This document shows, piece after piece, positions 17,278 through 47,139 of a stretch of 64,000 nucleotides of DNA. The notes beneath the pieces are model-generated. The model had not been told where the DNA came from and searched no databases. It saw nothing but the letters and a program-made list of their open reading frames with translations. The translations under genes and the position numbers were made by a program. Positions within the stretch are counted from its first letter, which is position 1. Each line of letters begins with the position of its first letter. The stretch comes from Saccostrea cucullata (Eukaryota): assembly GCF_032062105.1 (NCBI RefSeq), contig NW_026935377.1, forward strand, positions 62,001-126,000, read 5' to 3'.

Positions 17278-17350
17278 TATATACCGTCTTAAGATTTGAA
17301 GAAGGCAAGGGTCATTGATAGAAGACTAATAGAGCGCAGCGCATAGATAA
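17278..17350 (-). promoter_or_regulatory. Gene 1 promoter module (TATA, GGGTCA, AGATAA)
   Basis: TATATA 17278-17283; GGGTCA 17309; AGATAA 17345. Confidence 0.55.
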
Positions 17351-19126
17351 AAAAAAAATGCTAAAAGTCATCTGCATGGCTGAGTTTTGTTCTCATAAGC
17401 CGAAATTACGTATTTTTATCATTGATTTGTTGTTGAAAATAAATGTAGTCTAATTTTCCCTTCCTTAATAATTTAATTTCACTTGACGTATCAAGCAATT
17501 TCATTGGCTGCTTCATTCAGAGGAACATATAATATTTTGTACTTGCCTACATCACAATGAGTTAAGTCAAAAACGTATTACTCCGCTTGATGTTACTTTT
17601 AAAATAATACTCAATTTGAAACCTTTTTCTGGAGGAAAAATTGTCTCATTGTCTACACTGAAATTAAATTATAAGGAATGAAGTTTATTTCGACTTATGT
17701 TATACGATATTATAACATAACTTGGGACAGTTTACGCTTTTTTAAAAACCGCTTCGCGGTTTCATAAAGCGTAAGCTGCGTATTAACTTCAACTTCTTTT
17801 TTCTTCAACTCCCCAGCTAAATCCTTGGCTGTCATCTGATTTGTAGCAAATAACTGTGAATCAAATTTAGACTGAAGCTCTGTAAATTGGGTATGTAAAA
17901 TGTTTACATCCTTTGAAAACGGTCAAGTTTTGCAGATTAAAGGCCATATGTCAGCAGAAGTGGTCTGCGTTATGAACAGTGCACAAACTTGTATGATGAC
18001 GTCTTTTACAAATTTTACAATTGAAATTAGACTGACATTCTGCAACACGATGTCTCCCTAAACAATTAAAGCACAGTTTGTCTCCTCTGACAATTTTCAT
18101 CCGATAATTGTGTTTTGTGTATCTTGTACAGCCACTTGAATGATGCGACTCTTTGACGTCATAGCATTATGACGTCAAACTTTGGTAAAAGTCATTGACA
18201 TGCTAAGTCAATGTAAATTAGAAAAGTACTATTGTCTATAATTCACAACAAGAGATCATTACGTCATGTCGAAACTCTCTCGGACGTTATCCTAATGAGT
18301 GAAACATTATATAAATGGTGCCTGTTTTGTAGGGTAACATTTGAAATTGACACCCCAAGGAAATCCATTGTCAACCGACGCGTCATGTCTGAATGTCTTA
18401 TTGTAATAGGACGTCAGCAAAAAAAAAAAAAAAAAAAACCCGTCGATCGTCTTTACGTTCATGTATAGAAAGCTTTCACACTCACCGGTTCACTAATCTC
18501 CTTATTGTTTGTTTGATACTCGAATTAGAGTCATTTATCATATATTAAAATTTCGTTATTTCTGGCTCGCAAGCATGTTTCCTACACTCGTAAGCATGTA
18601 TCGTCTGTCGTTTTGTTGTTTTCAAGTAAGCCATATCGGACGCAAGCTTTTATTGACGCCAAGTTAATTCCGGTTCTTTCAAACGCGCAACTGACGTTTT
18701 GAGAATTCTACGGTGAACCCTACGCGCATAATTTCCATGCATGTGGCATTACCGTTGTGTTACCCGTTGTCACGTGTGTTGCTAAGGCTCAGGGTAATCG
18801 AACGGATTGTTAACTGCGTCTAAACCAATCAGATTTTAGTATTTAACATGAAAGTATAATAATAATATTTGTTAAGGATGAAATAAAAATTGCTAGATGA
18901 TTAAAGATCAAAGAAAAAATCAAATTCAAAAATCAAATATGAGATGACATGTTTTAAAAATATGTTTACCTACCACATAACTTCATTTGAACTAGCTGCA
19001 GAACTGTAGCTCTCTGCATACGAAAATTCGGACGGATAAAGCAGAGAGCTGCAGATCCATGCGTTTTAAAAACCTTAGATTTACGCGGCGGATTTTTTGT
19101 CGCTCATTTCTCACGGGATTCTTTAA

Positions 19127-20063
19127 GGACGTTCGATCCTGAGTTTTCGAGTGGATTTTGGTCAGGTCCTTTATTTATAAAAATTTGCATCATTTTTAAG
19201 TTCTAACATTAAATCTGAATTCTACAGTGCAAATGTAACTATATTCAATGAAAAAACCGCGATTAAATGCCATTCAAGTAGAATTAAGCTAGGGACTATA
19301 TTTTGTGGCGGAAGGTATTTTAGACGAAAATGATCAATTTTTCCATTTTAAACTATAACAGTACTGTTAATTTTGGATTCCTATTTTTCCATCCTGGTTG
19401 CACACAAAGCTGTTTTTTGCAGTGAAATGTGTTATGCTGGTTCTGAAATATCTATTAAATTATTTCTGATGAATTCTATCAACAAAGTGTGACAAATATA
19501 GTAAATATATTCTGAAAATCCGGGAAAAAATATTGAGCCAATTTTAACGTAAAATTGACACTTTTTCAGTAATATCTGAAAATTTACATCATATATCCCC
19601 ACTTTTGATGTTCTTTTCTTAATATTCAAGATAAATTTGGCCTATTTGCTTAAAATCAGAAAAAGTTTGAGACTTTAAAATATTTTTTTAGCTTTTTTAA
19701 TTTTCAATGCCATAAAAATCACTTTTTATTAGTGCAGAAAGGTCAAATAATTGATCATGCGAAGCAATTTGAAACTTTTTCTTAGTCACAATTTTTAAGT
19801 GTCTTTTCTAAAACAAACTAGGAGTTCATTTTGTTTCATGCTTTAATTGGATACAAATATTGGAGGGAAAACGTCAAAAATGTAATTTTTAATTAAGACA
19901 CAAATTTCAGTGCAAAAAGGTCATATTAAATATACTGTAGCGCCAAAAGAAGCGTATTGACCCCCATTTTTTGATTTGAATTTTAATTAAGCTATGTATA
20001 TAGAAACTAAAAATATACTTTGCAAAAAAAGTTTAAGACTTTAAATATCAGGATCGAACGTCG
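19127..20063. mobile_element. TTAA-flanked TIR element (Kolobok-like, non-autonomous)
   Basis: TTAA-GGACGTTCGATCCTGA ... TCAGGATCGAACGTCG-TTAA. Confidence 0.8.
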
Positions 20064-21444
20064 TTAATATATTACTGAAACAACAAATCAATTCTGAAAA
20101 AGTTTTCAGGTCTTTTCCTTCAAAATGAAGACCTTTCCATCATTTTCAATTTATTCAGAATAAGTCATTCAAGCATGAAATGCGCGGTATTCAATGTGTC
20201 GGCACGGCCAGGTGTGTTATAGGACCAAAGACATCCAAAAATATGAATTCAATGCTTATATTTACATTTTAAATTGACTCAAAACATTGTATATTTTGGT
20301 TTTCTTAGAGTATTGAAAATGCATATAGTTCCCACTATGTATTCGAATGCGCGGTGACAAGGTTTCGCGTGTGTTATAGAGATTTGAACACCGTGGATTT
20401 CTAAAGGATTTCATAAAGACCATTACACTGAATGTAAATATAAATAGTTAATCAGGACTAAAACGCGTACATCTAGAAATTTCAGGGGTGATATTAGGTG
20501 TTTAGGAGGAGCAAACATCCCCTTCGATTGGTCAACTGGCCAAATCCGTCGTGAATCCCATGAACTATCCAGGTAGGTGGGTCAGTCTGATGTAAAATTT
20601 AGCATTATAAAAAAAGACCCTACAATTGGTAGGAAACACACTAGCCACTTACCAACAAAAAGCTGAGTACGCCAACGAGACTATGCAAACTTTTGGGGTT
20701 AAAGTGCATAGTTTTCTATGCATTTTATAAATACTCGTATCCTTACAGAGTCAGTACAAAATCTAGTTCAAAAAGTTTTAATTTTTACTCTTTCAAACCC
20801 TTATTCCAAAAAACTATTCAAATTGTAGGAAATACTGATCAAACACATAAATGAGTTTTACAGTCAAATTAAATGCAATACATAAACAGAATGTGTAACA
20901 TAACTGTGGGAATGAAGGTAGTTTTACTTGTACTACATGTGTACTACTGGAAGGTCATCTGTATCAAAATGTTAAACATAGGTTGGGTTCAGAGCCCCAA
21001 AAGATGTAAACTGTATATGAAATATCAGTTTTATGACTCCTTGATATTTTTAATGAAAAACGACAGAAAAGTGTTATAAAGATTATATATTTAGGTTGAG
21101 AGAAAAAAAAAGAATATTAGAAGCTACATTCTATGTAATTTTAAAAAAATTACCAACAAATGAGTTAGAATTTTTCCTTTTTTGGATATGAAGATTCCTA
21201 ACAAAGGAGATACGTCTTCGTCAGATATAACACGTCCATACTCACCAGCCTCGCTTACACACCCTACCTAATACATGTAAACACACGGATAACCGAGACT
21301 AAAACCGATATTTAACGCACAAATGACTTCTAGATCGGTAGACATATGTACTTTTGTCGTTATTGGTTTTGTAGATGTGTAACAATTAATTGATGAACCT
21401 TTTGATTTCAGGAGTTTGAAAATGATGCTACTTGTAAGGTGAAA

Positions 21445-22240
21445 CAAATGGAGATAACGAACAGTATTCAAGTTCAAAAGTCCATAAAACAATACAAAAT
21501 AGAAGCAGAGCAAACACGGACCTCCAAAACAACGGAAGTGGAATCAGGTGCCATGGAGGTGAAAGCATCTCCTGCTGACCGGTCACAACAGCCGTGTTCT
21601 CCTTGTCATGATCAGGAAATAACGGAAAAATCCGTCGTCAATTCAGTTTATAAGTAATAGACTAACAATTAGTATAAAAAAGTCAGGCAGCATTTGACTC
21701 AATGATAAATTATATTTGCTGACAAGGTCATTGTATCGACCATAAAACTTACGAAATTATGACTCTAAACGAGACAGCTGATATTCTTGTTTCGTCAACT
21801 TGTTTGTCAATACCTCGTTTTAGAAATTGTTCAAGTATGCTCTTGTATATCGAATCAACTGAGATATATAAACTCCGTATGCAGGTGATGAAGGTATATT
21901 GCTGCATAGGTAAGGAAAATTAACGATAGAAAAGTTTTAAAGTCATCGCACGTATCATAGAGGTTGGTTGTTAGATTACCACTAACGTCTTTTTCAAGTA
22001 AAATATCCAAATATGAAACAGATGAGTCAGACTCTGTGGTATCTTTTATTTCAAGCTCACCTGGATATATCGTATCGACAAAAGAATGGAAATTGTCATT
22101 ATTAATTGACAATTCGTCGTCGATATATATCTAATGTCGAGTTGAAGGCCACAGTGTTTTCTTCATTTCACGCATAAGATTTTGCACAAATTCTGCTTGT
22201 TCATATGAATACAAAAATATGTCTGCTAATAACGGAAGGT
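21445..22240 (-). mobile_element. Degenerate Penelope-like retroelement 3' fragment
   Basis: RT C-terminal region IKDTTESDSSVSYLDILLEKDVSGNLTT plus the conserved non-coding end; frameshifted. Confidence 0.75.
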
Positions 22241-22394
22241 AAAATTGTTCACTATACACTCTTTTGCAACGAAGCAAAATTTACTTTTCGACTACTCGTC
22301 ACATTAATATAAGCATTTCCACTGTTATACATAATAAGAATATGACAAATTCAAATTGTAAAAAAAACAACGTTAGTACATTTTGCATATTTAT

Positions 22395-23727
22395 CTAAAA
22401 GTGGGTACATCTGCACTGGCCATCAATGCAGTGGTGTTCACGTCCGTGGTCACATCGTCCGCCACAGTCGCTGGCCATAGTGCAAGCTGAAATAATAATA
22501 AAGATATTGAGGTCTCTTTTTCTGATTGGAAAATTCGACGCATAAGAGGTTAGAGCACAAAGCATACATTTAGATTTCCTATGTTCATGTCATGAAACTA
22601 CTAACCTCCATCGCCACCTGCTGCTGTGGTACATGTGCACTGATCTCTGATGCAGTGAAGCGTGGAGCCACCACCACATGTTGTGGCTGTGCAGTCACCC
22701 GTGTCTCTACATCTTTCGGCAGAGACTGTAAAAAATTGAAGATGAAATGTCTTAATGTTACTTTGTCCAATGTATATCTGTGTGATAGTTATAAATAAAT
22801 AAAAAGTTGTTAAAACTGTAAGAATTAAAAAAACACTAAAACTTGTCAGCAAAGTAAGTGTGCACAACAATACTATGATTTATTCAAAACTGTCTTTTCT
22901 TCTACAAAGCAATTTAGATTTGTCATGCATAACACAATATCTGACATGTTCTACTGTTAAATCGTATAATAAACGGTTATTACTCTCTGCTCACTTGCAG
23001 GGGCGTAGCTAGACAAAAATGATCTGCACGCCAAAAAAGGCAGGGGGTCTGGGGGCCGCCTTCCAAGAGGCCCCCAGTGGGTCCAGGGCGAAGCCCTGGT
23101 GGGGGCCCAGGGGGCGAAGCCCCTGGAAGCTCCTGGGTTTTCACGTTTAGACTGAACAAAATTTACGCAATTTTTAAATATATAACATATGCTACGAGAT
23201 GAAGTCAACTTCACGATATTTTGATTTATGACACCAAAAAATAATAGATCTATTAATATTTAAAAAATATTTATGTTTTTTTTTTTTTTTTTATAAAATC
23301 AAGTGCATTGTCTGAATTTTTGTGATTACTTTAAAAAGGTATTTTTAGTTCCATTTTTTGTCTAATTTTTAAATAATGAAATTAAAACAAAACAATTTCA
23401 ATCCAGCAAATTTAATTTCCCCAAAACGTGCGGCGTCATGTTTCATGTATTAACTATAGGTATTACATATATAACGTTAGGCCTGCAGGCATAGTAAGTT
23501 TACACGGAATCTTTTAGGAATTTAATTTTTTATATGACGATATAATCAATTTTTTAATAATAAATTTTATAAAAATGCACAGTAATTTTTTTTTGGACTA
23601 AAAGATGTGCACGCCATGGCGTGCTGGCGTATAGGCAGCTACGCCCCTGACTTGTTTAAAACTGTTCGCCACAGTAGTCATACATACCTGCTAAGACAAC
23701 AACAGCGAGAAGGAAGATAGCCCTCAT
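22395..23727 (-). CDS. Cys-rich secreted peptide 2 (cvSI/I84-like), 3 exons, 83 aa
   Basis: Exons 23727-23688, 22725-22606, 22486-22395. MRAIFLLAVVVLAVSAERCRDTGDCTATTCGGGSTLHCIRDQCTCTTAAGGDGACTMASDCGGRCDHGREHHCIDGQCRCTHF*. Confidence 0.92.
22998..23649. mobile_element. Non-autonomous TIR element with a 5-bp TSD in intron 1 of gene 2
   Basis: ACTTG-CAGGGGCGTAGCT ... AGCTACGCCCCTG-ACTTG; GC-rich subterminal block. Confidence 0.85.
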
Positions 23728-23785
23728 AATGATCTTTGATTGAATGATTCCACTGAAAGAGGATATAATACTTCATTTCTTTTCA

Positions 23786-23861
23786 TTTATATACCTAATA
23801 TAGGAGAAATTACCTTGAAACGGTCAGCTATTTAGCACGGATTACAGACACGTGCAGATAA
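23786..23861 (-). promoter_or_regulatory. Gene 2 promoter module
   Basis: TATATAAA 23793-23786; CGGTCA 23821; AGATAA 23856. Confidence 0.6.
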
Positions 23862-24781
23862 AACAAGGACGAATTATAATGTCCTCATGCCAAAGTGTAC
23901 CATTCAAAGTAAGCTTCAATGTGCACTTAAACATCGAATAATTTTTTTGAATACAATTAAAAATACGTTTTAGAGTTAAAATTGAAAAAAAATGTACTAA
24001 AAATAAGCATGTAGAAATTAAAGAGTATATTTAAAGTTGTAGTTTAACCACATCTTTGCATCATCTTCAGATTATAAAAAAAGATACTACAAAAATAGTC
24101 AGATTACTCCATACCATAGAATGATTGTATCATGCAAACATTTTTTTTAAAAATTGATTAAAGTCGGCATGTCTTCTAGTATATAAAAAGTAATTGATAA
24201 GTATGTTTGGTCACACATATTTTACATTAGTTTTTTGTGTATGTATTGCATGCATTGTATTATTTTTTCATGTATTCCAAGTTCTCTGATTGACTAGAAC
24301 ACATGATCAAGTATAAAACAGCATAAAGACTTGTGTTATTAATTACAGATTCTGATATGCATATCGACTTGATGTTTCTAAAAAATGGAAATAATTTTCT
24401 GCTAGCAGTAGCTACTGCAGTGTATGACTTGATGTTACTGAAAAAGAAAAATACTTAAACCCCTATTTTAAATCTGATGTTCTGTAATACAATAATCGGT
24501 AAGACGTAACTGTGCCTTGAATAACTTCTATTTTATATTGAAACATACTATAGATGTTTTCAAAAATCAATTCAAAACATAATAAAACAAATGTAGGCCT
24601 TTTGAATTATTACATTCCCTAAATTACTCTATTAATATATAGGAAAAACAATTACATTAAACAGCCCAAATTGATTTTGATCTATAGTCTCTAAGTGTTA
24701 AAAAAGACAAGAGAAAAACTTGTCTTCCTACCATTATTTTCAAATTTTGTTTTGTCAATCTTTGTAAAAAATGATATAACT

Positions 24782-24909
24782 AATGTAGCCCTTTCATTTG
24801 GTCAATCCATAGATATATCGACTTCGAAGAAAAGCATATTCGTGCTCGATCGATATGTTTTTCTGTGAAGTCGATATATCTATGGATCGACCTCATCACA
24901 GGCTACATT
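24782..24909. mobile_element. About 130-bp near-palindromic MITE-like hairpin
   Basis: AATGTAGCC...ATCCATAGATATATCGACTTC ... GAAGTCGATATATCTATGGAT...GGCTACATT. Confidence 0.7.
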
Positions 24910-24988
24910 TATATAACATTTTGAGCATGTTTTTATATAAAATACGTTATTGTGATATTGATTAATTGTATGTAGTTTAACGTCCCTG

Positions 24989-25019
<31 letters not shown>

Positions 25020-26091
25020 TTATCGTGAGAGATATTTTGAACATAAATTCTGGATGAAGAAAACGAAAAAGAGTTGTTATAAAGACGTCAATATATTCCT
25101 TTCGGGCAGCAATAGACGAGACCTAAGGTTGTAATTATTTTAATGGTTAAAAAAAAGTAAGGGGCGAAGCTTCCATTTGTGTCTATGAGGCAACTGCCTC
25201 AGAACATTTTCAGAACTATCCTCTTCCCATAATTAATAATACAACTGTACATTGCAGAAAATATTTTTAAATTTGTTTTTAAAAATTATGCATCTTTTTA
25301 ACATTTGAACAAATCTATAATTTGTTGTGGTTTCATATCAATATGTTCGGGATCAAAATTCATGAAATCGGGCTCGTTCTAGTTCTAATAAATCCTCAAA
25401 ATAGTTTTTGTGGGAAAATTTAAAAAGTATTGATCAGAACATAGACCAAAAGAAAGGGAGCAAAGTTGACATCTATTTTGTTGAAAAGACAAAAAAGACA
25501 GTATAGAATCGGCGTCAGATGGGCCTATTTTACAAAACCTATCAACTATAGTGAATATTCTTTATCCTTATACATGTACACATAGTTTCAAAATTAATTA
25601 ACACTACAAACCTGCTCCCATAAAATAACACAATTTTTTCTGTTACCAGTGATTCCCTATTTTTCACAAACAGATGAATATATTACGCCAACATAAGAAC
25701 TTTCAAAGCCTGAGCAGTATAAGGTCATTTTAAATTTACTCTATTGCATTCTCAGAAAACATGAATGCTTAAGTCTTCAATAATGAAAAAGGTAAAATTA
25801 CGGAATTTCTGTCCCGGAAAAGTATGATTTTCACATCACCCCCCCCCCCCTTATCCCCTGCCAGAAGTCCGCCGTTTTTCGTTTTAAAAAGCTGATGATT
25901 AATTTTTATTGAGCCTTTCATGAGAACTTTTATATATCTACAGTCCTATGGAATAGTACTTTTCTGTGATATCGATGGTCGAAGTTTGATAAGGGCAATT
26001 GTCTAGGGTCTTTAATTTGTCTGTGTAGAATTATGCGAAAAGTATGATATTTTTTTTTCAAAATATTTAAACACGAAGGCATTCTGAAAAG

Positions 26092-28634: not shown

Positions 28635-29880
28635 TTAAAAATGAGTACATCTGCATCTTCCATCAATACAGTGATGCTGACGTCCATGATCACATCGTCC
28701 TTGACAATCATCGGCCCTGACGCAATCTGTAAGAAAATCAAGAAGATGAAGAAAACAGATATTGATCGATTTAAAAAAATCCCTGGACAGGGCATATACT
28801 CCAACCCCAGGTAATATCAGGTACGGGATCAGGCACCTAGGATCAGTAACTGATTCTTATTTGTTTATTCTTATTGTCAGAAATTTCACTAATTCCTATT
28901 TTGATATAATGAAAGGTATACCTCCATCGCCACTGGCTGCTGTGGTACACGTGCACTGATCATTGACACAATGAACTGTGGACCCCCCGGTACATGTTGT
29001 GAGTGTACAGTCCCTCGTGTCGTCACACCTTTCTGCGGATACTGTAAAACATTGTATGTAATGGCAGTTGATTATAGAACAAATCATGCTGTAATACATT
29101 AAAACTGTATCTAACAGTAGTTAATTAAAATTATATCTAACAGTAGTTAATTAAAATTGTATCTAACAGCAGTTTAGTAAAATTGTATCCAACAGCAGTT
29201 TATTTTCAAGGATTCATACTGTAAAACATTAAAATTGTATCTTAAAGCAGTTAATTATAAAACAATTAAATCATGCTGTTAAACATTAAAATTGTATATA
29301 ACAGCAGTTAGTTATAGAACAAATCATGCTCTAATACATTAATATTGTATTTTAAAACATTTAATTAACAACGAATCATACTGTAAAATTTCATAATATT
29401 GTATTTGACGGCACTTATTAATCAAACTACGGAGGCTCATTAAGGACCAATCGGAAATATTTTTGTGAATTTGATATGAAAAATTGGCGAATTTGTTATA
29501 ATAAATTTAATTCGATATAACAGTTTCTTTAAATTAGTTATGACGAATTTAATCTAAAATAACTTTTTATTGATATCGTTATATCAAAAAAAAAAATTAT
29601 AATAAATTTAATTCGATTAAACCAGTTCTAAAATTAGTTAAAATACATTTTAAATTCGTTTATACAAATTCTATTTGTTATTACAAAGTCAACATTCAGG
29701 GCCTACAGAATTTACAAATTTAAAGAAATCATTTTTGCAATATATACTTTTAGACTTCTTGATCTGCAGCCAATTTGTTTGCCTTCTCCTGGTTTTTCAT
29801 TCTGTGAAAACATATTGCACAAAATTATCACAATACAAACCTGCAACAACAACCAATGCGAGAATAAAAACAACCTTCAT
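28635..29880 (-). CDS. Cys-rich secreted peptide 3 (cvSI/I84-like), 3 exons, 83 aa
   Basis: Exons 29880-29841, 29041-28922, 28726-28635. MKVVFILALVVVAVSAERCDDTRDCTLTTCTGGSTVHCVNDQCTCTTAASGDGDCVRADDCQGRCDHGRQHHCIDGRCRCTHF*. Confidence 0.92.
29075..29400. repeat. Degenerate ~30-bp minisatellite in intron 1 of gene 3
   Basis: Repeated AAAATTGTATCTAACAGCAGTTAATT-like units. Confidence 0.7.
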
Positions 29881-29948
29881 ATTTCCTCTTTTCTTCACTG
29901 ATTGTTGTGAACAAAGATAATTTAATTATTAATTTCTTCTCAAGTATA

Positions 29949-30025
29949 TTTATATATATATACCTTGAAATAATTTATCTTGCAAAGGTCAGGAAATCAG
30001 AAAGTTTAAGGCCGTGCAGAGATAA
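29949..30025 (-). promoter_or_regulatory. Gene 3 promoter module
   Basis: TATA run 29949-29962; CAAAGGTCA (AGGTCA at 29986); AGATAA 30020. Confidence 0.6.
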
Positions 30026-31437
30026 AATCAATCACGAAACATAATGTCGTGCTTCTCGAAAAGCAGGAATAAAAACTATGGCATGTATATATATGAGGTA
30101 CTTATCTGTAGTTTTTCATATTATGAACATATCTTCAATATTTGTAATGTAAACAAGGAATAAAAGCAAGGAACTGCAGTAGTCGATTAAGGTCTAGTGT
30201 AAATATATAAAATTTATTTCGCTATATTTATATATGAAAATGATAACGTTTATGTACTCGACATCGATAGCCAAACGAGTTACTTTATCTGCCAATGGAA
30301 AGAAAGCATTTTCTATTCAAATAGAAAAAGAACTGTAAAAAAAATTGTGTTTTTCTTTGACTAAATCATAAAAAAAATGCGATGTGATTTTTTCCTTTTT
30401 TTCCCCCTCCAATTTGAATGAATGGAAAATGAAGACCCGAACAGCATTGAAATTCAGTGTGATAATCATAACCTTTTGATTTATATGTAGCACTTCAGTC
30501 GACAGGTGCTGTCGCACTTAATATTTGTATTTCATTTTTCCGAATCGGTCGCTTGGCGCAGTGGTTAAGGCGTTTGCTCTATATTAAAAAATTCTCAAAA
30601 GGGGCGCTTCACAAAATAATTGTCCAATTTTAGTGAATTTTTGTAAAAAAAAAAAAAAAAAAAGCTATTATTTTCAATTCCCATATGAACTGTACTGTAA
30701 AGTATCTGCTTTAAGCAGATTAGAATTTAAGAAAGACTACCTGATCTTTATGGAATGGTTTCAGCTGACAAAGCTCTTTGTTTGCAAGGCTTATTTTAAC
30801 CATTTCATTTTAGAAAAGAAGCGAGAATATATTCCTAATCTTGTAACCCAATTTATTCTCTCAGTCCCTATTCCTCAGAGTCACGTTTTGAGTTTAAATA
30901 CTTTAATAATTCCGGTAAACGTGAGTGAACTTAAGTTTCAAATCTATACTGAAATTCGATATCTCATAAAAATATAAAATCAATACATGGAACGCTACAG
31001 AAATGCATACCTTGTGGATGATAAATTGAGATAACGAATGGCATTTAAAATCAAAAGTCCATTGAAACCATAGAAAGCGTGAGCAGAGCAAACAGTGCTG
31101 TTGATATCATTGGCTCTCATACTAAATTTGATACTTATAGTCCAGATAAATAGATAGATGACAGGAAATACTTACTCTTTCCAGGCACATGAACTCACCT
31201 CATTTAGAATCTTAAAGATTTAATAAAGTTCTCAAATTTGGGGAATAATAGTTGTATTCTAGGCATATTGTGGAAAATAAGTTTTCTTATCTAGATATGT
31301 CATGGTCATTATTTATCAAAACTTTTTAAGATATGAATTATTTTCAGTTCTTCAGTTTTATTTCTATAATTTCTACAGGTCAATATACAATGAATCAGAC
31401 ATGTGACAACTCGTTAAGGTAGACGAATTTATTTCTT

Positions 31438-32782
31438 CTAAAAATGTGTACATCTGCATCGACCATCAATACAATGGTGCTGGCGTCCATGATCACAACG
31501 TCCGTGACAGTCATTGGCCATGGTGCAAGCTGTGGTAAAAAAAAATGAATTAATTTACCAAATTATTCAATGAAGTGCTATGCGGAGAGAGCTTTTAAAT
31601 TACTAAATAAAATATCTATTTAAAGCATAAGTATGTCGTAAGTATAAATTTTTGAAAATTTTGAAGGAAACTAGACGACTTTGGGATTTTTAAAAAGATT
31701 TTTATATTTAAAAAAAAAATCTTAACCCTCTGAAACATCAATCTAGGATTAAACTTGTCTATCGATTGAGAGAAAACTGCTAAAAATACTAAGAAAATAG
31801 GGACGAGTCGGGTGCTTATACAATAGAAAGTTGGTAAAAATTGCAGATTCTAAGATTTCTTATTTCATAGTTTCAATTATTTTCAGCAATACTAAATACC
31901 CAGTATGTCGTATCAAGTCACATACCTCCATCACCACTTGCTGCTGTGGTACACGTGCACGTATGTCCAATACAATGGAGGGTTGATCCGCCCCCGCATG
32001 TAGTGGCTGAACAGTCATCCGTGTCATCACATCTTTCAGCGATGACTGAAAGACATTGAATTTCAAAACAGAGGCTTAGCAATTGCATAGCTGTTTATTT
32101 CATGTCTACAGGCCTAAAATAACTTGAAACGTAAATTAATTTTCTTGTAATTATCTGGTGATTTAACTAATATTTCGTTTGACTTTCAATACACTCACTA
32201 ACAACATGACATGCGCTTTAACATTGATTCAATAGACTTAATTGGAATTCTTTGGAAAATATAACTAGCATTATCATTTCAATAAAGTAATATTCAAACT
32301 TAAGATCAAGAGAATATTGAACAATGACTACAAAAAAGTTCAACTTGTATATTCCACACGATATATGAATGTATCCCTTCAGATAGGCATACCACACAAA
32401 TATGCTTAATTAACTAAATTACAAACTAATTAATGCAAATGCATGATAGAAAAGGAAATTTATCTTTTTCACAATTAAAGAATTTTTTAAATTTAAAAAT
32501 GAAACAATCCAAGATACAAATACATATTTAAATAAATTCTTTAAATGAAGAAAGAAATTAATGAGTGTACATTAAAAAAAAATCTTTATGTCATGGAAAC
32601 CATATTTGCAATGTTATTACAATGCTGCAAAAAAACTTCTTTGTAAATGTTCAAATCTTATTCAGTATTGTACCTTCTTCTGAATTGTCTTCTGAGAAAA
32701 CAATTTGTAAATATTAATCTACATGTAAGTAAACACAATTACCTCCGACAACAACGACAGCGAGAATAAAGATGGCCCTCAT
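31438..32782 (-). CDS. Cys-rich secreted peptide 4 (cvSI/I84-like), 3 exons, 83 aa
   Basis: Exons 32782-32743, 32045-31926, 31529-31438. MRAIFILAVVVVGVIAERCDDTDDCSATTCGGGSTLHCIGHTCTCTTAASGDGACTMANDCHGRCDHGRQHHCIDGRCRCTHF*. Confidence 0.92.
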
Positions 32783-32840: not shown

Positions 32841-32916
32841 CTTATATATCTTCTCTGAACTAAATTATCATGCAAAGGTCATCATTTCAGCACATAACTT
32901 TGTCATGTGAAGATAA
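32841..32916 (-). promoter_or_regulatory. Gene 4 promoter module
   Basis: TATATAAG near 32841; CAAAGGTCA (AGGTCA at 32876); AGATAA 32911. Confidence 0.6.
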
Positions 32917-33109
32917 AAATAAGCACGAAACGTAATGGCGTGTTGCTGGAAAAGCAGGACATGAATAAAGGTCTTCAGACGTTCAGCTTTGGTGGTGATT
33001 AAATGGGTCCATGACTGTTTTATCAGTAACATGCATCATTTGAGAAATCGTTTGCATGTAGAGCAAGCCCTTGCATATTAAGTCTTCTGAAGACATAAAT
33101 TTCCTATAT

Positions 33110-33840
33110 GAAGGATATGGAGATAACGAACAGTATTCAATCTCAAAGTCCATAAAACAATTCAAAATAGGAGCAGGGCAAACACGGACCTCCAAAACAT
33201 CAGAGGTTGGATCAGGTGCCATGGAGGAGTGAGCATCCCCTGCTGACCGGTCACACCCGCCATGTGCTCCTTGTCATTATCAGGAAATAACGGAAAAATC
33301 CGTCGTCAGTTCAATGTATAAATAATGGACTAACAATTAGTATCAAAAACGTCAGTAGCATATGACTCATTGATAAATTGTATTTTGCTGACAAGGTCAT
33401 TGTATCGCCATAGAATTTACGAAATGATTACTTTAAACGAGACGGCTGATATTCTTGTTTCATCAACTTGTTTGTCAATAATTCACCTCGTTTTAGAAAT
33501 TGTTCATACGTAGAGCATGCTCTAGCGTATCGAATCAACAGAGATATATATACTCCGTATGAAGGTAATGAAGGTATATTGCTGCACAAGTAAGGGAAGC
33601 TGACGATAGAAAAGTTTAAGTCATTACGTTTATCATATAGTTTGGTTGTTAGATTACCATTAACGTCTTTTTCAAGTAAAATATTCAAGTATGAAACAGA
33701 TGTGTCAGACTCTGTGGTATCTTTAATTTTATCTCAAGCTCACCGAGATATATCGTATCGACGTAGGAATGGAAATTACCATTGTTAATTGACAATACGT
33801 CGTCGATATATCTAAAAGTCGAGTTGAAGGCCACAGCAAG
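33110..33840 (-). mobile_element. Penelope-like retroelement 3' fragment
   Basis: FRYIDD motif and LTTKLYDKRNDLNFSIVSFPYLCSNIP...LIRYARAC; same family as 21445-22240. Confidence 0.8.
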
Positions 33841-38066: not shown

Positions 38067-39889
38067 TTAGGGATTTATAACCTTGACCTTTCTCCCAAGA
38101 ATCGATAGGATCTCCTTTAGTTCATAGGGAATTGTGATGTAAATTTCATTGCAAAAGTTCAAAGGTTTCTCGAAATATGGCGAGGAAATGAAAATGTTAC
38201 ATGCAGGCAGATAGATATGCAGCTAGACGGAAGGACAGATCTAAATTAATATCCCAAACTGATAATGAAAGCGAAGATTAAAAGAAAGATTTTGTCGTTT
38301 TTTATGGAGAGGGTTAATTTTGAAGAGAATGAATCTTCTGAATAAATGAAGTCAGTGATGTCAGATGAAACCTAACTATAAAAACAGAGAAAGTGGACAT
38401 ATTAAAGACACCAAAGCAATAAGCACGCTAACTCTCGATTCCCAGTTTCATTTAATACTTTTCAATACTAATGACAATTTAGCCATTATATTTTGGTAAA
38501 ATACCAAGAAAAGGTCAATAGTAATAGATTAATAATTTCGATAATAATATTAAATATTAATGAGCTCTTATTTCCAATTCTTTTCATAAGAGAATAGACG
38601 GTGTTTTCTGTTAAAATCGTGCTTTAAAGCATGCACCACAAGATTTTCAGATGCTCTAAGATTAGGATAAATGTTCCTTTATATCATGCTTATGAAATCG
38701 AAGATATATGATTGTTACCATACAATTTTCTGATAGTAAATACTTTGAAATTTTAGAAGTTTTCTAGAAAAAAATGAGCATTTTTTTCTTTTTTGTCTGT
38801 AAACATACCCCCCCCCCCCAACCTTAAACAATTCCAACTTATATTAAAATACAATGTAAATGTGTTATTTATCTTTTTTTACCAAAACAAGCTTATATAC
38901 AAGCTTACAACAAGCTTATATAGCTTAAGTAATGTTTTGTGAAAATTCTTCAAGAGCAATAGGACAACACTTTCAATAGTAAAATGTTCTTACCACGGCA
39001 AATAATTATATGATTTTTTTGTGTGTATATATTTCGATCATTAAAGTTTCTTCTTGATTGTCAAACTACTCATTTTTTTTTCTAAAAAGCCTGTTTTTCC
39101 TATGAAACTACGGTCATGTTTGCTACAGAGTTACACAAAGGTGTAGAGAAAGGAGAATGTTAAAATTAATGAAATTTGGCACTAAGCAAAAAAGAAATAT
39201 ATATAAATGTTTTAAAGTCACTGACCTGACTCAATCTTTAATAATACAGATTCAAAATTCTTTTACTTCTTCTCTCTTGTGTTTCAGTTCATAAGCAATG
39301 GACACAACACGGGACTGCTGATATACTAAATTCACCAACTTAATTTTTAATAGCTTGCCTGTTTCTAGAAAGTGTTCATTTTCAACACAGGCTTGAAGAT
39401 TATCAAATGATAGAATATTTCTGAATATATCTAAATATTGAAATAAAGGCCACAATAGGAGACCTGTTCTTTTTTCAATAAATTCTGCGAATATTAGGTT
39501 TTCTCTGTCACTGCACGACAAAAACGTCATCGTCGTTATGACGCTATTTCGACGCTATTTTATTATCTTCCTCACATCTTTTTATACCTCTTGTATCCTT
39601 TTTCAGTTAAAAGGTAATTTTACTAACCCGTTTTGTTATAAAGCATCTTGTTTTGCATTGTAGTAAATCATTTTGATTTTGGCGAATCTTTCCCAAAATT
39701 CATTCTCTTTTACACAGATCTTCTGAATATAATTTCAGGTGACATCCGAAATATTAAGAGGCATTGGTATATAGAATTTTGCTGATTGTGTTATTATTAA
39801 AGGTTTTGACTTTACATTTGGATCAACAATAAGTGAGACAAATAAGATAAATAAATCAAGTAAGAAAGTGGAAAGGTAGATTTATTTCT

Positions 39890-40760
39890 TTAAAAATGAG
39901 TACATCTGCACCGACCATCGATACAGTGGTGCTGACGAGCACCGTCACATCGTCCATGACAGTCACTGGCCATGGTGCAAGCTGTCATAAAAAGAAAGAA
40001 AAAAAAATCTAAATCCTCATAAAACCTGTATCTAGAATTAATCTTGTCTAAATATTTTAGAGAACAATGCTTAAAATTACAAAGACACAAAAAGTTATAG
40101 AAAAAAATGTTATTTGGTTGAAGATTTTACAAAGAAAGTTGGTAAAAATGGCTGATACTTCCGTTTACAATGTAATACTTTCTAATAAGAGTTTCATAAT
40201 TTTCAAGAAAACTTAATGTCCAGTATGACGTATCGAGTCATCTACCTCCATCGCCACTTGCTGCTATGGTACACGTGCACAGATGTCCAATACAATGGAG
40301 GGATGATCCGCCCCCGCATGTAGTGGCTGTACAGTCACCTGTGTCACTACATCTCTCAGCCGTGACTGCAAACAAAGGTTGTTAGCAATTATATAGCAAT
40401 TCATTGAGTCTACAGGACTATACTAATATAAAGCACAGTTCTGTACATAAATGTTCTTGTGGTCACGTGACAAAGGTAAGATTTTCTTTAACTGTAAATT
40501 CACATAATTTACCTTGCAATAATATGTGAATAAAAAATAAATAATCTGTTTAAATATGGTACAACAATTTTGTAAAATGATTTATATATAAGAAAAATGT
40601 TTGTAATAAGTAAATACATTGCTATAGGAAAACCTTGATCATTGACAGTCAAAATTTTGATTGTATCTTCTTCAAGAGAAAACATATAACGGATATGCTA
40701 ATCACAGAATACACACATACCTGCAGCAACAACGACAGCGAGAACAAAGATGGCCTTCAT
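39890..40760 (-). CDS. Cys-rich secreted peptide 5 (cvSI/I84-like), 3 exons, 83 aa
   Basis: Exons 40760-40721, 40365-40246, 39981-39890. MKAIFVLAVVVAAVTAERCSDTGDCTATTCGGGSSLHCIGHLCTCTIAASGDGACTMASDCHGRCDGARQHHCIDGRCRCTHF*. Confidence 0.92.
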
Positions 40761-40808
40761 GGTGCTTCACTAAATGTTGTGAACGACATTTTTGGTGATT
40801 TTTTTTCA

Positions 40809-40883
40809 CTTATATATCTTCTCTGAAAAAATTATCTTGAAAAGGTCAGATATTTCGCACATAATTCTGTCATGTGAAGATAA
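40809..40883 (-). promoter_or_regulatory. Gene 5 promoter module
   Basis: TATATAAG near 40809; AGGTCA 40843; AGATAA 40878. Confidence 0.6.
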
Positions 40884-41859
40884 AAATAAGCACGAAACAC
40901 AGTGTCGTGTTGCTTAAAAAGCAGGACAAAATTAAAGGTAGGCTTATATGATATTATCGGGCTTCACAATTTGTTTCTTTATTTATTTTCATATAACATT
41001 TAGCTTTTGTAAATTTTTATTGTCAATAATTTGTTTACTTTTTAGAAAAAGGATTCAATGACATTCTAATTGTAAATCAATTTGAAAGAACAATTTTTCT
41101 TTTGAAGCAAACAAGTAGATGTAAATATGCTATAAGTAAAAAAAAAAAAAAAGAGCAACAAAGCAATATTGCTCGATATTGTATTAAAAACAATATTAAC
41201 ATTTATTTAATTTTTTTGATATTTATTTGTTATTAAGATTATTTACATCTTCTGCTTTTTGAACATGTCTAAGTAACCACCTTACAGTTGACTCGTCTAA
41301 AAACAATATTTTCTCTATATTATGAGAAATAAAATTTTAATTTCAGATAGTATGTTTTTTTTCTGGCTTGACTTTTAACATGTAAAAATACTCCTACACA
41401 TTGTGTGCTTTTTAAATAGAAAATCAAAAATCTCCCTTCAAATTTATTTAATTTCAACAAAGGTTGAATTCTCCGAAGGACCGGTCTCTACCTTCCACGG
41501 CTCGATTTAAACCCGTAACGGTAACGAAAGGATCAACTCCTTACATCGCGACTCTAGAGTAGACGCTCTTACTACTTCACATTGTGTTATCTAGCCTCTA
41601 ATATCTTTTCAAAGGATTCTTTTCAAAACGTGTTTCAGATTTTAAAACATTTGTCAATCTAGTAAACAGAAGTTGATTGACCGAGTTACTGATTTATCTC
41701 TATATGTAATTCCTAAACTTTCCAAAATTCGATAAAAAGGAGAGTCCTATAATAAAGTATAATGGTCTTTTTGGAATTCCTATACGTTCAAAATATTCTC
41801 CTTTATTAGCTAAAAATTGGTATGAAACAGATATGAACAAATTTTATGGTATATTTGCC

Positions 41860-42880
41860 ATGAAGGTCATTTTAACGACTATAGGATTTATGAAATACTG
41901 ACTTTTAACAAGCTTTTTGACTTCCCTGAAATATCAACTTTTATGTTAGTGTCCTGCCTTGGTTTAAAAATGTAATCCTCCTCAAAATATGCTCTTGAAT
42001 ATCGAATAAGTTGGGAAATATTTAAATAGGGAAAGTTTACGATGGAAAAGCTGGTCGTCATAAACTTTTGCATTTATTTAAAATAAGTGTTTGTAGTCAG
42101 TAAAACTTCTTCAAATGAAAAAGATGAACGAGAACCTTCAGGAGTGCTGTGCAACAATATGTTCTAGAAATTGTGTAATGAAATATATAGAGATAACAAC
42201 AGTATTCAAGCTTCAAAATAGGAGTAGAGCAAACAAGGACCTCCAAAACAGTAGAGGTGGGATCAGGTGCCATTGAAGAGTGTGCATTACTTGCCGACCG
42301 GTCATACCCGCCGTGCTCTCCTTTTCATGATCGGGAAATAACGGAAAAATCCGTCGTCAATTCAGTACATAAATAATTAGTATGAAAAACGTCAGTCAGC
42401 ATTTGACTCAATGATAAATTGTATCTGCTGACAAGACTTTTCAACTTTATATCCAACAATATCCTACGATAAATTAAAGTTGAGGCTTTTTGGCAGCATT
42501 GAAAGCTTCTTTTTCAATAAAAATGGAACTCATAAATCTAATTACTTTATCGTTGGTTGTTTACAAAATTACTTTAAAAAAAACATTCTGAGTCTACACA
42601 CAAGTACTCTGAAGTTGATATTAAAAAGATGCTTGGGTTTCTGATGCACAATGGTTTTCGGAGACCAGGCCTTCCAACAGTTTATTGAAATTCCCAATTC
42701 CGCTCCGTTATCAGCAGGCCTGTTTTTATATTCATGTAAAGCACAATACGTTCAAAAAATCTTATAGATGAATAAAAGAATACGCTGTGACTTCCAACTT
42801 AACTTTTAGATATATCGACGACGTATTATCAATTAACAATATCGACGACGTAATGTCGACGTAATGTCAATTAACAATAC
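41860..42880. mobile_element. Rearranged Penelope-like fragments in both orientations
   Basis: Minus-strand FSIVNFPYL / SQLIRYSRA and 3' end (42185-42435), followed by a plus-strand RT piece ending FRYIDD (about 42806). Confidence 0.65.
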
Positions 42881-42885
42881 ATTCG

Positions 42886-42918
42886 TTTGTTTGTTTGTTG
42901 TTTAACGTCCCTCTCGAC

Positions 42919-42949
<31 letters not shown>

Positions 42950-43185
42950 TGCCCATTGAGTACTGCAAATTTTGTCCTAAACTACTACTCGGTACTTAAG
43001 GCCGTTGAGCATGAAGGGATCTTTTTCGTGCCATACCTACTGCGACACTTGGCCTCGGTAATTTGGTTTCATCCGAAGGATCTGTCTCCACGTCCCACAG
43101 TGGGATTCGAAACCAAGACTTAAAGATCAACTGCTTATTTTGCGACTCTAGAGCAGACACTCTAACCTGTGCCAATACGATGCAA
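42886..43185 (-). mobile_element. tRNA-derived SINE
   Basis: GGTTTCGAATCCC B-box-like head, family body and (AAAC)n tail. Confidence 0.65.
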
Positions 43186-44254
43186 TACATTTGTTGTCTT
43201 CATATATATCATGTATGAAATCTCTAGTCTATAGTCAATAAGTCATCCATACAAAATATTGCATACTCTCTGATATCTTTATCGAATGAATATATGTGGA
43301 TAAATAAATAAAAATCATTACTATTAATTGGATGTTAAGTTGAAGGCCACTGTAAGAGTTCCTTTTCCTTCTCTCCTTCTGTAGAGTATGTTAAAAAGAA
43401 TTCGAATAAAGTCTGCTTGGTAGGAATATAAAATCAAAGTACTGAAAGTACTCATGGGAGTCGAACATTGTTAACTGAAAAATCTCACAGGAAGTATAGG
43501 AACAGTTTCATGCTTTCAGATTCAAGTCAGCTAGAACTGATTTGTTAGAGATACAACACAAAACATTAAAAATAATTTCTATTGTATTTGAATAGCCAAG
43601 AACATGGGACTGCTCTTAAATTAGCTGCAGAACTGTAGCTCTCCGAAAAAAAAAGATTTTGACAGACGGGAGAGCTACAGTGCCATCCATTGAAAAAACT
43701 GTATATTTATTGCGTACTAACAGTTAAGTTTAGTTCTGGATTTATTCTATCTAATACTTACCTCAACAATTTGACCAAACCAAACAAACAACGCCCACCA
43801 CCTAAAAAATAATTTTTCCAAACTCGAAAATACTATTTTGTGGGTAGGTTTCAAACTTCTTTCAGTACCATTTATTACTCAAACTCAAACACTAACCTTA
43901 TGTTTCTGAAGCATTTGAATCAAAACACCCCTGCTCTCTTTAGAATGTGTACAAGATACTGTGTCCCAAAAAACAAACAAACACTCTTTATATTCGATGT
44001 TACCATCACCAGACACTAGATTGTCATTTTTCTTCCTCTGATTAAAACAAGTATTTGCTATTCTCTTTTGGGTATGAATGTTTCTTTTCGGACACAATAA
44101 TTAATTTTTATAGAACTCCGTGCTTATCTATTTTATCAAATGTATCTATCTTTATAACTTAATCATCAAGTTTTGTTATTCCATAATCCATAATTTTAAA
44201 TTTAATTTCAAGTAATTTCTATATAGAAGTAAGTATCTGAATACTTCACATTTT

Positions 44255-44550
44255 GTTTGTTTTACGTTCGATAATTTTTCAATCATATTGAGACACTACC
44301 ACTTGTCGATGGAGCTAGCTACATGTAAGTCTACAAATTTTTACCTATACACGGCACTCAAAACCATTGAGTAGTGAGGGATCGTTTTGTGCAAGCAGAT
44401 ACAGCGACATGGGATTTCGGTTTATATGGTCTCATCAAAAGAGTTTATCTCCAAATGCATCCCACAGGATTCGAACCTGCGACGTAAGGATCAATTAACA
44501 CCTTACTTTGAATCTCTAGAGCAAACTATTTTAACAACTGCGCCACGCGA
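44255..44550 (-). mobile_element. tRNA-derived SINE, degenerate
   Basis: A-box-like TGGCGCAGTTG and B box GGTTCGAATCC on the minus strand; family body. Confidence 0.6.
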
Positions 44551-45936
44551 GTGACACTTAAAGTTTGTGATTTTGATTTGATTCAAATGTAATTAAAAAT
44601 CAGACATAGTTTAACGAGCTACTACAAGAAAAAAAAAACAGTTGTAATCATGAGGAACGATCTTTCTTACAGATCGATCATTTGGATTATTATACCATTG
44701 TATCCGTGCATACGCATGTATTCATTAATTCTAACTGTTTTAATTATATAATAAAATCAAATGATACATTTTATAAGGTAATACTACATGCAAGTACATA
44801 CACATTTTTGAAGTTCAGATTTGGTGTTGTACACGTGACCAACTGAATGCTGATAAATTCATGAAATTAAGGATGCAAAATTAATGTCATTTGAAATTGT
44901 GAGATCGAATATCAACAAACTTTAATGCTATTATTTTTTCCCTTTACCAATAAAAATATATCATGTATGACAAAATCAGTCTAACAGATCATTTTACTTG
45001 TCAGAGCAAATAAATATCTGACAGTGATATTTTCCGCAGTATTTTTTTTTTTAAAGAAACGTTGTTCTGTCTCTTTATTGCTGAAACAAATCGAAAGAAG
45101 TTGGATTAAACTTAGCGTTCCTTTGACCTTACATCTTTGTTTACATTTCTATATTTAGACAATCGCGTCATTGTCAAACCAGTTAGACCAGTTGTTGCTC
45201 CTTGGATGACCTCGTACTTTTTGTAATGGAATGAAAGGACCGAATGATAAATGACGGAAAACTGGGACCTTTTTTTCATATGGAAATCAAAATTTACGTG
45301 TCATTTCTCAAGAGAGATGACAAAAATATGCTATTCAAATTAAGTTAAATAAAATTCTATTTCATTTACTTTCAAATCATTTATGAAAATTAGATTAGTT
45401 CAGAAAAATGAGATGGACTGTTTTTATTGCGGAAGTTTCTTCGAGTTTATATAGACCGGTACGAGTTTGTATGGAATATCACAGGGGAGTAAATTGGCCG
45501 ACACAGAAACACCACGACGGCCGCTATATAATTCATTGTAAAATTACTGCGCTAGAAACCGCGTGACGACCTAGGGAGTTTGAACATAAAACTCCCAAAA
45601 ACATATTGGATGAAAAAAAGAACAAATTAATGTCCATGAAAATTCCAACAGATTGTTTTTGAAAGACATGGCCATACAAGATTACACAGATATTACTGAT
45701 GAGGAACAGCAGCATCTATGTTTAAGTCTATCAGCTTGAGGGTACTTATTTGTAGAATCAGAATGATTAAAATTAGATTAGGACACCTCTGTTGTGTCTC
45801 TGCTTTATCTGGAAGTCATTATGACTTCGGTCAGAGGTAAATGTAAGTAGGGAACTATGCATACCGATAAGGATTATTTGCGACAATTGGTACAACTTAA
45901 TAAATCAGACTCATAGAAAAATATAAATTTATTTAT

Positions 45937-47011
45937 TTAAAAATGAGTGCATCTACATCTGCCATCAATGCAATGGTGACGTCCACCGTGGTCACATCTT
46001 CCATGGCAGTCGTCAGCCATGACGCATCCTGCAACAACAATAAAGAAACATTATTTAAACTTTTCATAAAACAAAGGTACCTTTACTCTGTTGGTTAGAC
46101 TTTAAAAAATAGGGAAACACACAGAGTAAATTCGGTACGAACCTCCGTCGCCAGTGCCAGCTGTGGTACAGGTACATTGGTGGTTAACACAGTGGAGCTC
46201 AGAGCCGGAAGCACAGGAAGTGGTGGAGGTGGAGCAACTGGATGTGTCTCGGCACATCTCAGCAGAAACTGATAGGATATCAAAATTAAATGTTGATACA
46301 GATTTATTTTAGGTGGTAAGTATGCATACGCATACATGTATATATATTTCTCTATATCACGTTTGGAAAGAATATAACATTGTGCGAAAGCTTCTTTGAC
46401 ACAAAAATATCAGAAAATTTCCTATAAATATCCAAAGTCATGCAGGAAAATTTATGAACAGTTTAGGAAACTTTGCAGAACTACGTAAAGATGCATTTTA
46501 TACACAAAACAACATTATGATATCTAAAACACACTGTTGTCTTTGTTCAGAATTTGCGGTTTAAAAAATTGAGAGCTTTAAAAAAAATTTTTAAAAAATT
46601 ATATATATTTCTCTATATCAAGTTTCGAAAATTTCCTATAATTATCCAAAATCATGCAAGAAAATTTAGGAACAGTTTAGGAGACTTTGCAGAACTACAT
46701 AAAGATGCGTTTTATACACAAAACAATATATATACATGATATCTAAAACACACTGTTGTCTTTGTTCAGAATTTGCAGTCTTTATATTGTTTATTTAAAT
46801 AAGCTTAATTAAGTTTCGTGAAAATGAAAATTTTTGCTCACGCACAGATCAAATATAGAGTTTATAACGAACATAATATACAAATACAATCTTATCCATT
46901 TTATTCAATTAATATAATTATAATAGTCGTCTTTTCATTTATATATAATATTTGTAGAAAAAACAATTTACCTGCTACAATAACGACGGCCAAAACAATC
47001 AGAGTTCTCAT
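45937..47011 (-). CDS. Cys-rich secreted peptide 6 (cvSI/I84-like), 3 exons, 85 aa
   Basis: Exons 47011-46972, 46268-46143, 46028-45937. MRTLIVLAVVIVAVSAEMCRDTSSCSTSTTSCASGSELHCVNHQCTCTTAGTGDGGCVMADDCHGRCDHGGRHHCIDGRCRCTHF*. Confidence 0.92.
46340..46780. repeat. Local ~200-bp tandem duplication in intron 1 of gene 6
   Basis: TATATATTTCTCTATATCA...ATCTAAAACACACTGTTGTCTTTGTTCAGAATTTGC occurs twice. Confidence 0.75.
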
Positions 47012-47074
47012 GATGGTGAGTTTGGACTGATTTGAAGATTAGATGTCAACTATTGTTATCGTTAGAAGCGGGCC

Positions 47075-47139
47075 TTTTATATAAGGAGAGCATTCAGAAA
47101 AGTCAGGCACACAGTTCCAAAATTCAAACCCATAGATAA
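47075..47139 (-). promoter_or_regulatory. Gene 6 promoter module
   Basis: TATATAAAA near 47075-47083; AAGTCA 47100; AGATAA 47134. Confidence 0.55.

Follow-up and report, generated by a model that had tools for sequence, protein, structure and literature searches.

A GATA and nuclear-receptor half-site footprint conserved in the promoters of a tandem array of I84-type genes in the bivalve Saccostrea cucullata

The closest described system to the locus treated here is that of the razor clam scSI clusters, whose genes belong to the cvSI-1/cvSI-2-like MEROPS family I84, are tandemly arranged, consist of three exons and encode cysteine-array proteins of ~83 aa; 2 kb promoters were scanned there, and no motif common to all members was reported (PMC9198434). 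An array with the same exon structure, cysteine array and tandem layout is found in Saccostrea cucullata (assembly GCF_032062105.1, contig NW_026935377.1), of which the stretch from position 62,001 to 126,000 was analysed; this whole stretch of 64,000 nucleotides is called the window. Whereas the razor clam scan covered 2 kb, the 200-bp proximal segments examined here reveal a cluster-specific module of a GATA site and a nuclear-receptor-type half-site, together with family-wide GATA and CGTGA motifs. The module is a genuine phylogenetic footprint and adds one case to an ordinary element type, the conserved footprint in duplicated promoters; it is a local family trait and not a genome-wide code. 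A literature search for a prior description of the module gave the razor clam study only, most subscription papers lying outside its coverage.

GATA factors and HNF4 form an endodermal (gut/liver) programme in vertebrates, flies and nematodes. The array shares with this programme a GATA site and an AGGTCA-type site upstream of (here putative) digestive-organ genes, but lacks the HNF4-specific motif and mostly lacks a second half-site. We know of no fixed 35 bp spacing in the GATA and HNF4 programme, and a literature search by title gave none pointing to one. The array also resembles the general class of footprints in tandem-paralogue promoters, in that short motifs outlive a saturated spacer in one array only. 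It differs from ordinary members of that class in that the spacer length seems to be constrained (P ~0.01) and in its turnover to promoters with GATA only (gene g7) or with a direct repeat 1 (DR1) only (gene g8).

The array comprises nine I84-type genes, of which g1-g8 lie in the window, all on the minus strand, and g0 lies immediately left outside it. A preliminary description had placed a TATA box, a hexamer and AGATAA upstream of g1-g6, and all six hexamers and all six AGATAA sites are present where it had placed them (Table 1). On the sense strand the module reads TTTTATCT, a 28-30 bp spacer, TGA(A/C)(C/T)nTT, TATA and ATG. From g0 to g6 the GATA-to-half-site distance is 34, 36, 35, 34, 35, 35 and 34 bp, and the half-site-to-TATA distance is 35, 31, 33, ~35, 33, 32 and 22 bp; the fixed spacing proposed for all three parts thus applies to the first distance alone. 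TATA starts 56-76 bp upstream of the ATGs, and initiator-like words (TCAGT/TAGTT/TCATT, judged by eye against the initiator consensus) stand 29-34 bp past the TATA start in g0, g1, g4, g6 and g7. In g3, g4 and g5 the start of the half-site is followed, 11 bp downstream, by a second GATA of opposite orientation, which is altered in g2. Because the preliminary description was made with no view of g0, this gene provides an out-of-sample confirmation from the same array: its module lies at -134 (GATA), -100 (half-site TGAACTTTG) and -65 (TATA), with AGTTCA, a standard half-site form (PMC3384313), at a spacing of 34 bp. The g0 promoter may share more upstream similarity with g1. By contrast, the module is absent from g7, where two GATA sites stand without an upstream half-site, and from g8, whose three TGACC sites include a DR1 pair and whose proximal 200 bp are free of GATA.

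The 8-mer TTTTATCT is identical in seven of seven module genes, with its WGATAA core near the core promoter. The TGA..nTT columns are conserved in 5-7 of the seven genes and the flanks mostly in 3-5. The spacer has largely lost its similarity: in 16 of 21 pairs the alignment score does not exceed that of shuffles (p >=0.146), which holds for every one of the 11 pairs involving g0 or g1, and among the alignable pairs the three among g2/g4/g5 are clear and g2/g3 and g3/g6 marginal. Four-fold degenerate sites differ by 0.38-0.65 among the module genes, except g4/g5 (0.18; 16-34 sites per pair), and the mean corrected distance is 0.89. Under a substitution-only neutral model at the measured divergence, an invariant run of at least 8 arose nowhere in 260 bp in 20,000 simulations (0.13% at 0.6x divergence). 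Descent alone therefore fails to explain the module, given unalignable spacers, four-fold divergence of 18-65% and the lack of any neutral invariant 8-mer. A pattern fitted post hoc to the seven sites gives 7 matches in 94 kb, all at promoters, against 0.15 in Markov backgrounds, the promoters being paralogous and hence not independent occurrences. The GATA and half-site motifs are clearly conserved footprints under constraint, beyond duplication leftovers. The earlier observation that the spacing holds where the surroundings do not align, made for g1 and g6, stands as well: every g1 spacer pair is unalignable and the spacing is 36 bp in g1 and 34 bp in g6, for which g3/g6 is the marginal pair.

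Reuse of the module elsewhere was searched for genome-wide. Exact GATA plus TGACCTTT gave 22 matches against 36 in a reversed control, three of the 22 being g3-g5; with TATAA added there were 20 against 16, two of them g4 and g5 (g0 and g3 fall narrowly beyond the TATA gap permitted), and the TGAACTT variant gave 11 against 31. These scans detect exact variants only, and rare reuse could escape them. Forty-two matches were fetched (19/19 others of the first pattern, 15/18 with TATAA and 8/11 rows of TGAACTT, repeat copies dropped): TATA lay within 45 bp in 2/19, a hydrophobic or long ATG frame was nearby in 6/23, and a single one of the 42, in TGACC-rich sequence, was first-exon-like, so that no convincing promoter was found among them. 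The module is also absent from lysozyme and carboxypeptidase promoters (0/6, the credible first exons out of 21 enzyme loci), two of which have GATA and two CGTGA. Alpha-amylase-family loci were not counted, their first exons being membrane-anchored or unclear; actin genes were searched as control promoters and then not used, molluscan actins having an intron just before the ATG. The general co-regulation cassette proposed in the preliminary description is thus not supported, since g7, g8 and 17/17 unlinked paralogues lack the module and its genome-wide counts are not clearly in excess. The motifs, their order and spacing, their persistence beside a mostly unalignable spacer and their confinement to the array are direct observations.

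The 17 unlinked I84-type promoters were assembled with first exons assigned by signal-peptide pattern, less surely in two (C21028c, C18790p); three near-identical copies (C20843, C14049, C10957) were excluded, as were the divergent loci of C6378. Two loci of C6378 (L062, L063) carry several divergent cysteine-rich exons each with I84-like spacing, one with a stop, and are possibly multi-domain relatives. Within 200 bp, 16/17 of the promoters have WGATAA (38% of 1088 background tiles), 11/17 GATAAG (7% of tiles), 13/17 CGTGA (13%) and 9/17 the half-site TGA(A/C)C(T/C) (26%). Fifteen HSP20 control promoters, nine with heat-shock-element-like words, have GATA in 3 and CGTGA in 2 (Fisher p 3e-5 and 5e-4 against I84). 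Against dinucleotide shuffles, GATAAG and CGTGA each reach a family-wise p of 0.002 in the unlinked promoters, and GGTCA is outside the top words (z 1.9). The nearest approach to the module among the 17 is C21725, where TTATCA and TGACCT are 36 bp apart, but at least 136 bp upstream of TATA. On these enrichment comparisons, GATA and (T/A)CGTGA at free spacing are the family-wide signals and the half-site is array-specific.

The (T/A)CGTGA(C/T) motif is unmentioned in the preliminary description. Its contexts are mostly TCGTGA and ACGTGA, that is, an NCGTG core with T or A first. In the array exact CGTGA is found in g0, g3, g6 and g7, and a CGTGC variant in g4 and g5 lies 11 bp upstream of GATA, the position of CGTGA in g3. 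Pax sites, TFE/USF half-sites and XBP1/CREB3-type sites presumably also fit the motif. A likeness in sequence only is seen to elements of basic helix-loop-helix (bHLH)-PAS proteins with ARNT: the TCGTG core of NPAS4 and the ACGTG core of SIM/HIF lie inside the I84 motif, and the model NPAS4/SIM1 elements described for these proteins contain CGTGAC (PMC12774657).

The array genes match secreted peptides of the molluscan protease-inhibitor family MEROPS I84 (cvSI-like), a family marked by inhibition of subtilisin-type serine proteases, by predicted cysteine pattern and gene structure. In each of the g1-g8 models a signal-peptide exon of 40 nt is followed by two exons with six cysteines each, and the product is 81-85 aa long, so that, as in the I84 layout, signal peptide, Cys 1-6 and Cys 7-12 are on three separate exons. 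The g0-g8 models follow the I84 array CX5-8 CX4-5 CX7-9 CX4 CTC X6-23 CX5-7 CX3-6 CX5-8 CX4 CXC (12 cysteines), as in g2 (C-X5-C-X4-C-X7-C-X4-CTC-X9-C-X5-C-X3-C-X7-C-X4-CXC), except that g6 has X6, not X4-5, between C2 and C3; g1 has an additional Cys within the signal peptide. The family name follows pattern and structure because no search gave a named homologue: a search with exon 2 against longer proteins yielded 6 candidates and scored none, Pfam gave nothing above cut-off for the array peptides (sub-threshold cysteine-rich Nodulin_late and Toxin_2 only), and Atlas matches were below 0.8 (0.78) and uninformative. In sequencing run X1 (share 0.07; recorded as 'DNA?'), two contigs connect 39981 with 40246, at the exact ends of the predicted g5 intron 2, and one of them lacks intron 1 (a skip of 359 bases with 4 letters in between; 355 predicted). 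Since these contigs join across predicted introns, spliced forms of g5 or of a close paralogue exist, and X1 is probably RNA-derived. Over 39850-41100 the run gives intron-less g5 contigs and one whose loose end matches g4; its contigs do not extend over the g5 promoter.

Table 1. Genes of the array and elements of their promoters (window coordinates unless a contig is named; half-site hexamer starts are on the forward strand)
Feature	Position	Strand	Description
g0	contig G000:C17514 ~58868-60600 (L001:6868-8600)		left of window; full module
g1	14136..17211	-	ATG 17211; exons 17172-17211, 14368-14484, 14136-14230; 83 aa; predicted model
g1 TATA-like box TATATAT	17277..17283	-	-72 from ATG
g1 nuclear-receptor-type site	17306..17318	-	GGGTCA 17309-17314 (+) after AAGGCA-A 17302-17308; only DR1-like module member
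g1 GATA site AGATAAAA	17345..17352	+	invariant 8-mer in 7/7 module genes
g2	22395..23727	-	ATG 23727; exons 23688-23727, 22606-22725, 22395-22486; 83 aa, 12 Cys; predicted model
g2 TATA box	23786..23793	-
g2 half-site with A-rich flank AAACGGTCA	23818..23826	+	CGGTCA 23821
g2 GATA site AGATAAAA	23856..23863	+
g3	28635..29880	-	ATG 29880; exons 29841-29880, 28922-29041, 28635-28726; predicted model
g3 TATA box in TA run	29949..29962	-
g3 half-site CAAAGGTCA	29983..29991	+	AGGTCA 29986
g3 GATA site AGATAAAA	30020..30027	+	more GATA at 29975-29980, 29915-29920
g3 CGTGA motif TCGTGAT	30031..30037	-	11 bp upstream of GATA
g4	31438..32782	-	ATG 32782; exons 32743-32782, 31926-32045, 31438-31529; predicted model
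g4 TATA box	32841..32848	-
g4 half-site CAAAGGTCA	32873..32881	+	AGGTCA 32876
g4 GATA site AGATAAAA	32911..32918	+	second GATA 32865-32870; TCGTGC variant 32922-32928
g5	39890..40760	-	ATG 40760; exons 40721-40760, 40246-40365, 39890-39981; intron 2 seen joined in X1
g5 TATA box	40809..40816	-
g5 half-site AAAAGGTCA	40840..40848	+	AGGTCA 40843
g5 GATA site AGATAAAA	40878..40885	+	second GATA 40832-40837; TCGTGC variant 40889-40895
g6	45937..47011	-	ATG 47011; exons 46972-47011, 46143-46268, 45937-46028; 85 aa; predicted model
g6 TATA box	47076..47083	-	22 bp from half-site
g6 half-site variant GAAAAGTCA	47097..47105	+	AAGTCA 47100
g6 GATA site AGATAAAA	47134..47141	+	TCGTGA motifs 47152-47158, 47175-47181
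g7 and promoter	49051..52146	-	ATG 51987; GATA 52056, 52087; TCGTGAC 52140-52146; module absent
g8 and promoter	58853..60143	-	ATG 60028; DR1-like pair 60115-60127; third half-site 60099; module absent

The window (GC 33.6%, in a genome of 1.17 Gb) holds several other features. A 630-aa open frame at 5382-7274 (-) with a reverse transcriptase domain (PF00078, E 3e-38) is a fragment of a retrotransposon of the long interspersed nuclear element (LINE) type. It and an AT-rich 28/83-bp satellite at 7287-9848 are flanked by 47-bp GC-rich satellite arrays in opposite orientation at 1882-4243 and 10862-11666 (51 and 18 copies). Inside the array, between g7 and g8, lies a single-exon rhodopsin-family G-protein-coupled receptor gene (54563-55816, -; PF00001, E 1.9e-32). 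A 135-aa frame at 61308-61715 (-) resembles by eye a cadherin-type extracellular exon and has sub-threshold Pfam matches only. The repeat family at 21400-22150, 33070-33800, 42196-42436 and 50240-51000 is dispersed and carries degraded retroelement-like coding remnants.

In the Pacific oyster, 14 Cvsi-2-like genes are reported as hepatopancreas-enriched, with 58-3122 fragments per kilobase per million (FPKM) there, <=3.5 FPKM in muscle, palp, gill, haemolymph and mantle, and some signal in male gonad (PMC8149454). The razor clam I84 genes are likewise reported to be expressed mainly in the digestive gland (PMC9198434); a literature search for cell-type work on cvSI-1 gave nothing relevant. By analogy with these relatives the array genes would be expressed in the digestive gland; to this extent the expression suggested in the preliminary description agrees with what is known from other bivalves, though the general cassette suggested for it was not borne out. 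We consider it fairly probable that the module has been inherited and selected as a binding pair for a GATA factor and a nuclear receptor that drives the TATA promoters of the seven I84 genes in this organ. The module of these seven tandem genes is likely to have descended from one ancestral promoter, which would have put the receptor site ~35 bp nearer TATA than the GATA site, the pair then being kept in seven copies. A GATA factor would give I84 promoters in general their digestive-gland activity; it probably drives the whole family, in many promoters together with a partner that binds (T/A)CGTGA at no fixed distance. The half-site is probably the array's own second input and would be bound by a nuclear receptor. 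Both factors would activate the TATA promoter, and selection would then be likely to keep both sites. The presence of GATA only in g7 and of a DR1 only in g8 suggests subfunctionalisation or regulatory divergence of these two genes. A tree of coding sequences nests g7 and g8 with g1, weakly (68%); a protein tree with outgroups does not resolve the array and is compatible both with loss of the module in g7 and g8 and with an earlier split of these genes.

Several results weigh against selection of such a pair. The spaced module is found in 0/17 unlinked I84 promoters and not in g7 or g8, so that I84 genes can do without it; unlinked I84 promoters have the half-site no more often (9/17) than HSP20 promoters do (8/15); and exact CGTGA lies within 200 bp in only three of the seven module promoters (g0, g3, g6). 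The probability calculated for the conserved spacing spans 0.0003-0.27 over the parameter grid and is ~0.03 once the choice among three intervals is allowed for. In searches of the Pacific oyster table of 1527 hepatopancreas-enriched genes, no row is named GATA, HNF4 or hepatocyte nuclear factor, and the two rows named as nuclear receptors are ROR-beta-like and NR2E1-like; no row is named PAS domain, and one is XBP1-like (PMC8149454). A factor can, however, act without being tissue-enriched.

The best-surviving alternative, which is possible if somewhat unlikely, is that the motifs are functional but independent, their equal spacing reflecting descent with too few indels fixed in 29 bp. For this question the indel rate (0.117 per substitution) and the gap sizes were both measured on the repeat family described above, where six pairs of copies show 43 gaps; three of the pairs fall among the same three copies. 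Intron alignments of distant paralogues were dropped as a source of the rate, since they gave spurious AT-rich matches. With a star tree, a spacer range of <=2 bp has a probability of 0.012, and with the coding-sequence tree one of 0.011; the length has been kept although the spacer sequence is saturated and TATA-to-ATG ranges over 56-76 bp within the same genes. Yet the probability rises to 0.06-0.27 with a lower indel rate or divergence, the half-site-to-TATA distance of g6 is shifted by ~11 bp, and the unlinked paralogues carry GATA at free positions in both orientations. Spacer length is thus probably, not certainly, under moderate constraint, and the case is weaker than that for the motifs.

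A rigid GATA and HNF4 (DR1) composite, in which 35 bp spacing is needed for cooperative binding, is unlikely. Reading AGATAA as a GATA-type site and the hexamer as a nuclear-receptor-type half-site is fair, and the motifs are conserved; the HNF4-type DR1 proposed for g3 and g4 is not supported, as CAAAGTCCA, defined as the HNF4-specific motif (PMC3384313), is in 0/7 module sites and the 5' half-site is poor in all but g1, the only one of g0-g6 in which a second half-site can be recognised (the DR1 of g8 stands without the module). A spacing of 35 bp is also long for direct contact of two factors, and here it varies by 2 bp and is not reused at the 42 loci examined elsewhere. In favour of HNF4, CAAAGGTCA (g3, g4) and CAAAGTTCA (g0) resemble its 3' half plus spacer, and the spacer range of 28-30 bp has the low probability given above. 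In a binding study, CAAAGGTCA is about as frequent as CAAAGTCCA in HNF4 chromatin immunoprecipitation peaks and a weak 5' half is tolerated by HNF4, but array probes with an AGGTCA 3' half-site preferred RXR and COUP-TF2 (PMC3384313). The Pacific oyster is reported to have 43 nuclear receptors, including one HNF4, one NR4, four NR2E and eleven NR1P (PMC4070562). HNF4, COUP-TF/RXR, NR4A, ROR-like/NR1P and NR2E-like receptors are candidate leads for the half-site.

Less probable still is an inducible immune or stress module, in which GATA would confer competence and the half-site (e.g., through NR4A) or the CGTGA site would confer induction. The NR4A site is AAAGGTCA. The resemblance of CGTGA to the TCGTG/ACGTG cores of NPAS4 and SIM/HIF:ARNT, or alternatively to XBP1/CREB3-type sites, is compatible with induction, as is the XBP1-like row of the hepatopancreas table. 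I84 genes are reported to be upregulated by pathogens, but in razor clam digestive-gland expression is high without challenge and unaltered by heat or ammonia (PMC9198434). That tandem duplication or gene conversion left the module behind as neutral residue, noticed post hoc in AT-rich DNA, is highly improbable: every module gene is a tandem paralogue, the g2-g5 promoters align in part and the genome-wide counts are near or below control, but the spacer alignments and the neutral simulations, none of which gave an invariant 8-mer, largely refute it, the module was confirmed out of sample in g0, and unlinked promoters with hardly any 11-mers in common are enriched for GATA.

The proposed GATA/receptor pair can be extended to a promoter grammar for I84 genes of the digestive gland, which we offer as a tentative and rather doubtful proposal: GATA and a (T/A)CGTGA bHLH-PAS-type site would act family-wide and, in the array, a GATA/nuclear-receptor composite locked at 34-36 bp would have outlasted a near-complete turnover of its spacer. 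For bivalves, a link is reported between the levels of I84 inhibitors and Perkinsus and Vibrio resistance (PMC9198434). The natural variants of the array (g6 with TATA ~11 bp closer, g7 with GATA only, g8 with a DR1 only) are candidate regulatory variants for breeding, the 140-bp module is a candidate small digestive-gland reporter promoter, and the array offers a test case for the importance of GATA-receptor spacing in a mollusc. If the proposed grammar is true, these genes would have a compact 140-bp tissue-specific promoter, and a ligand-sensing receptor could tune the output of anti-parasite inhibitors.

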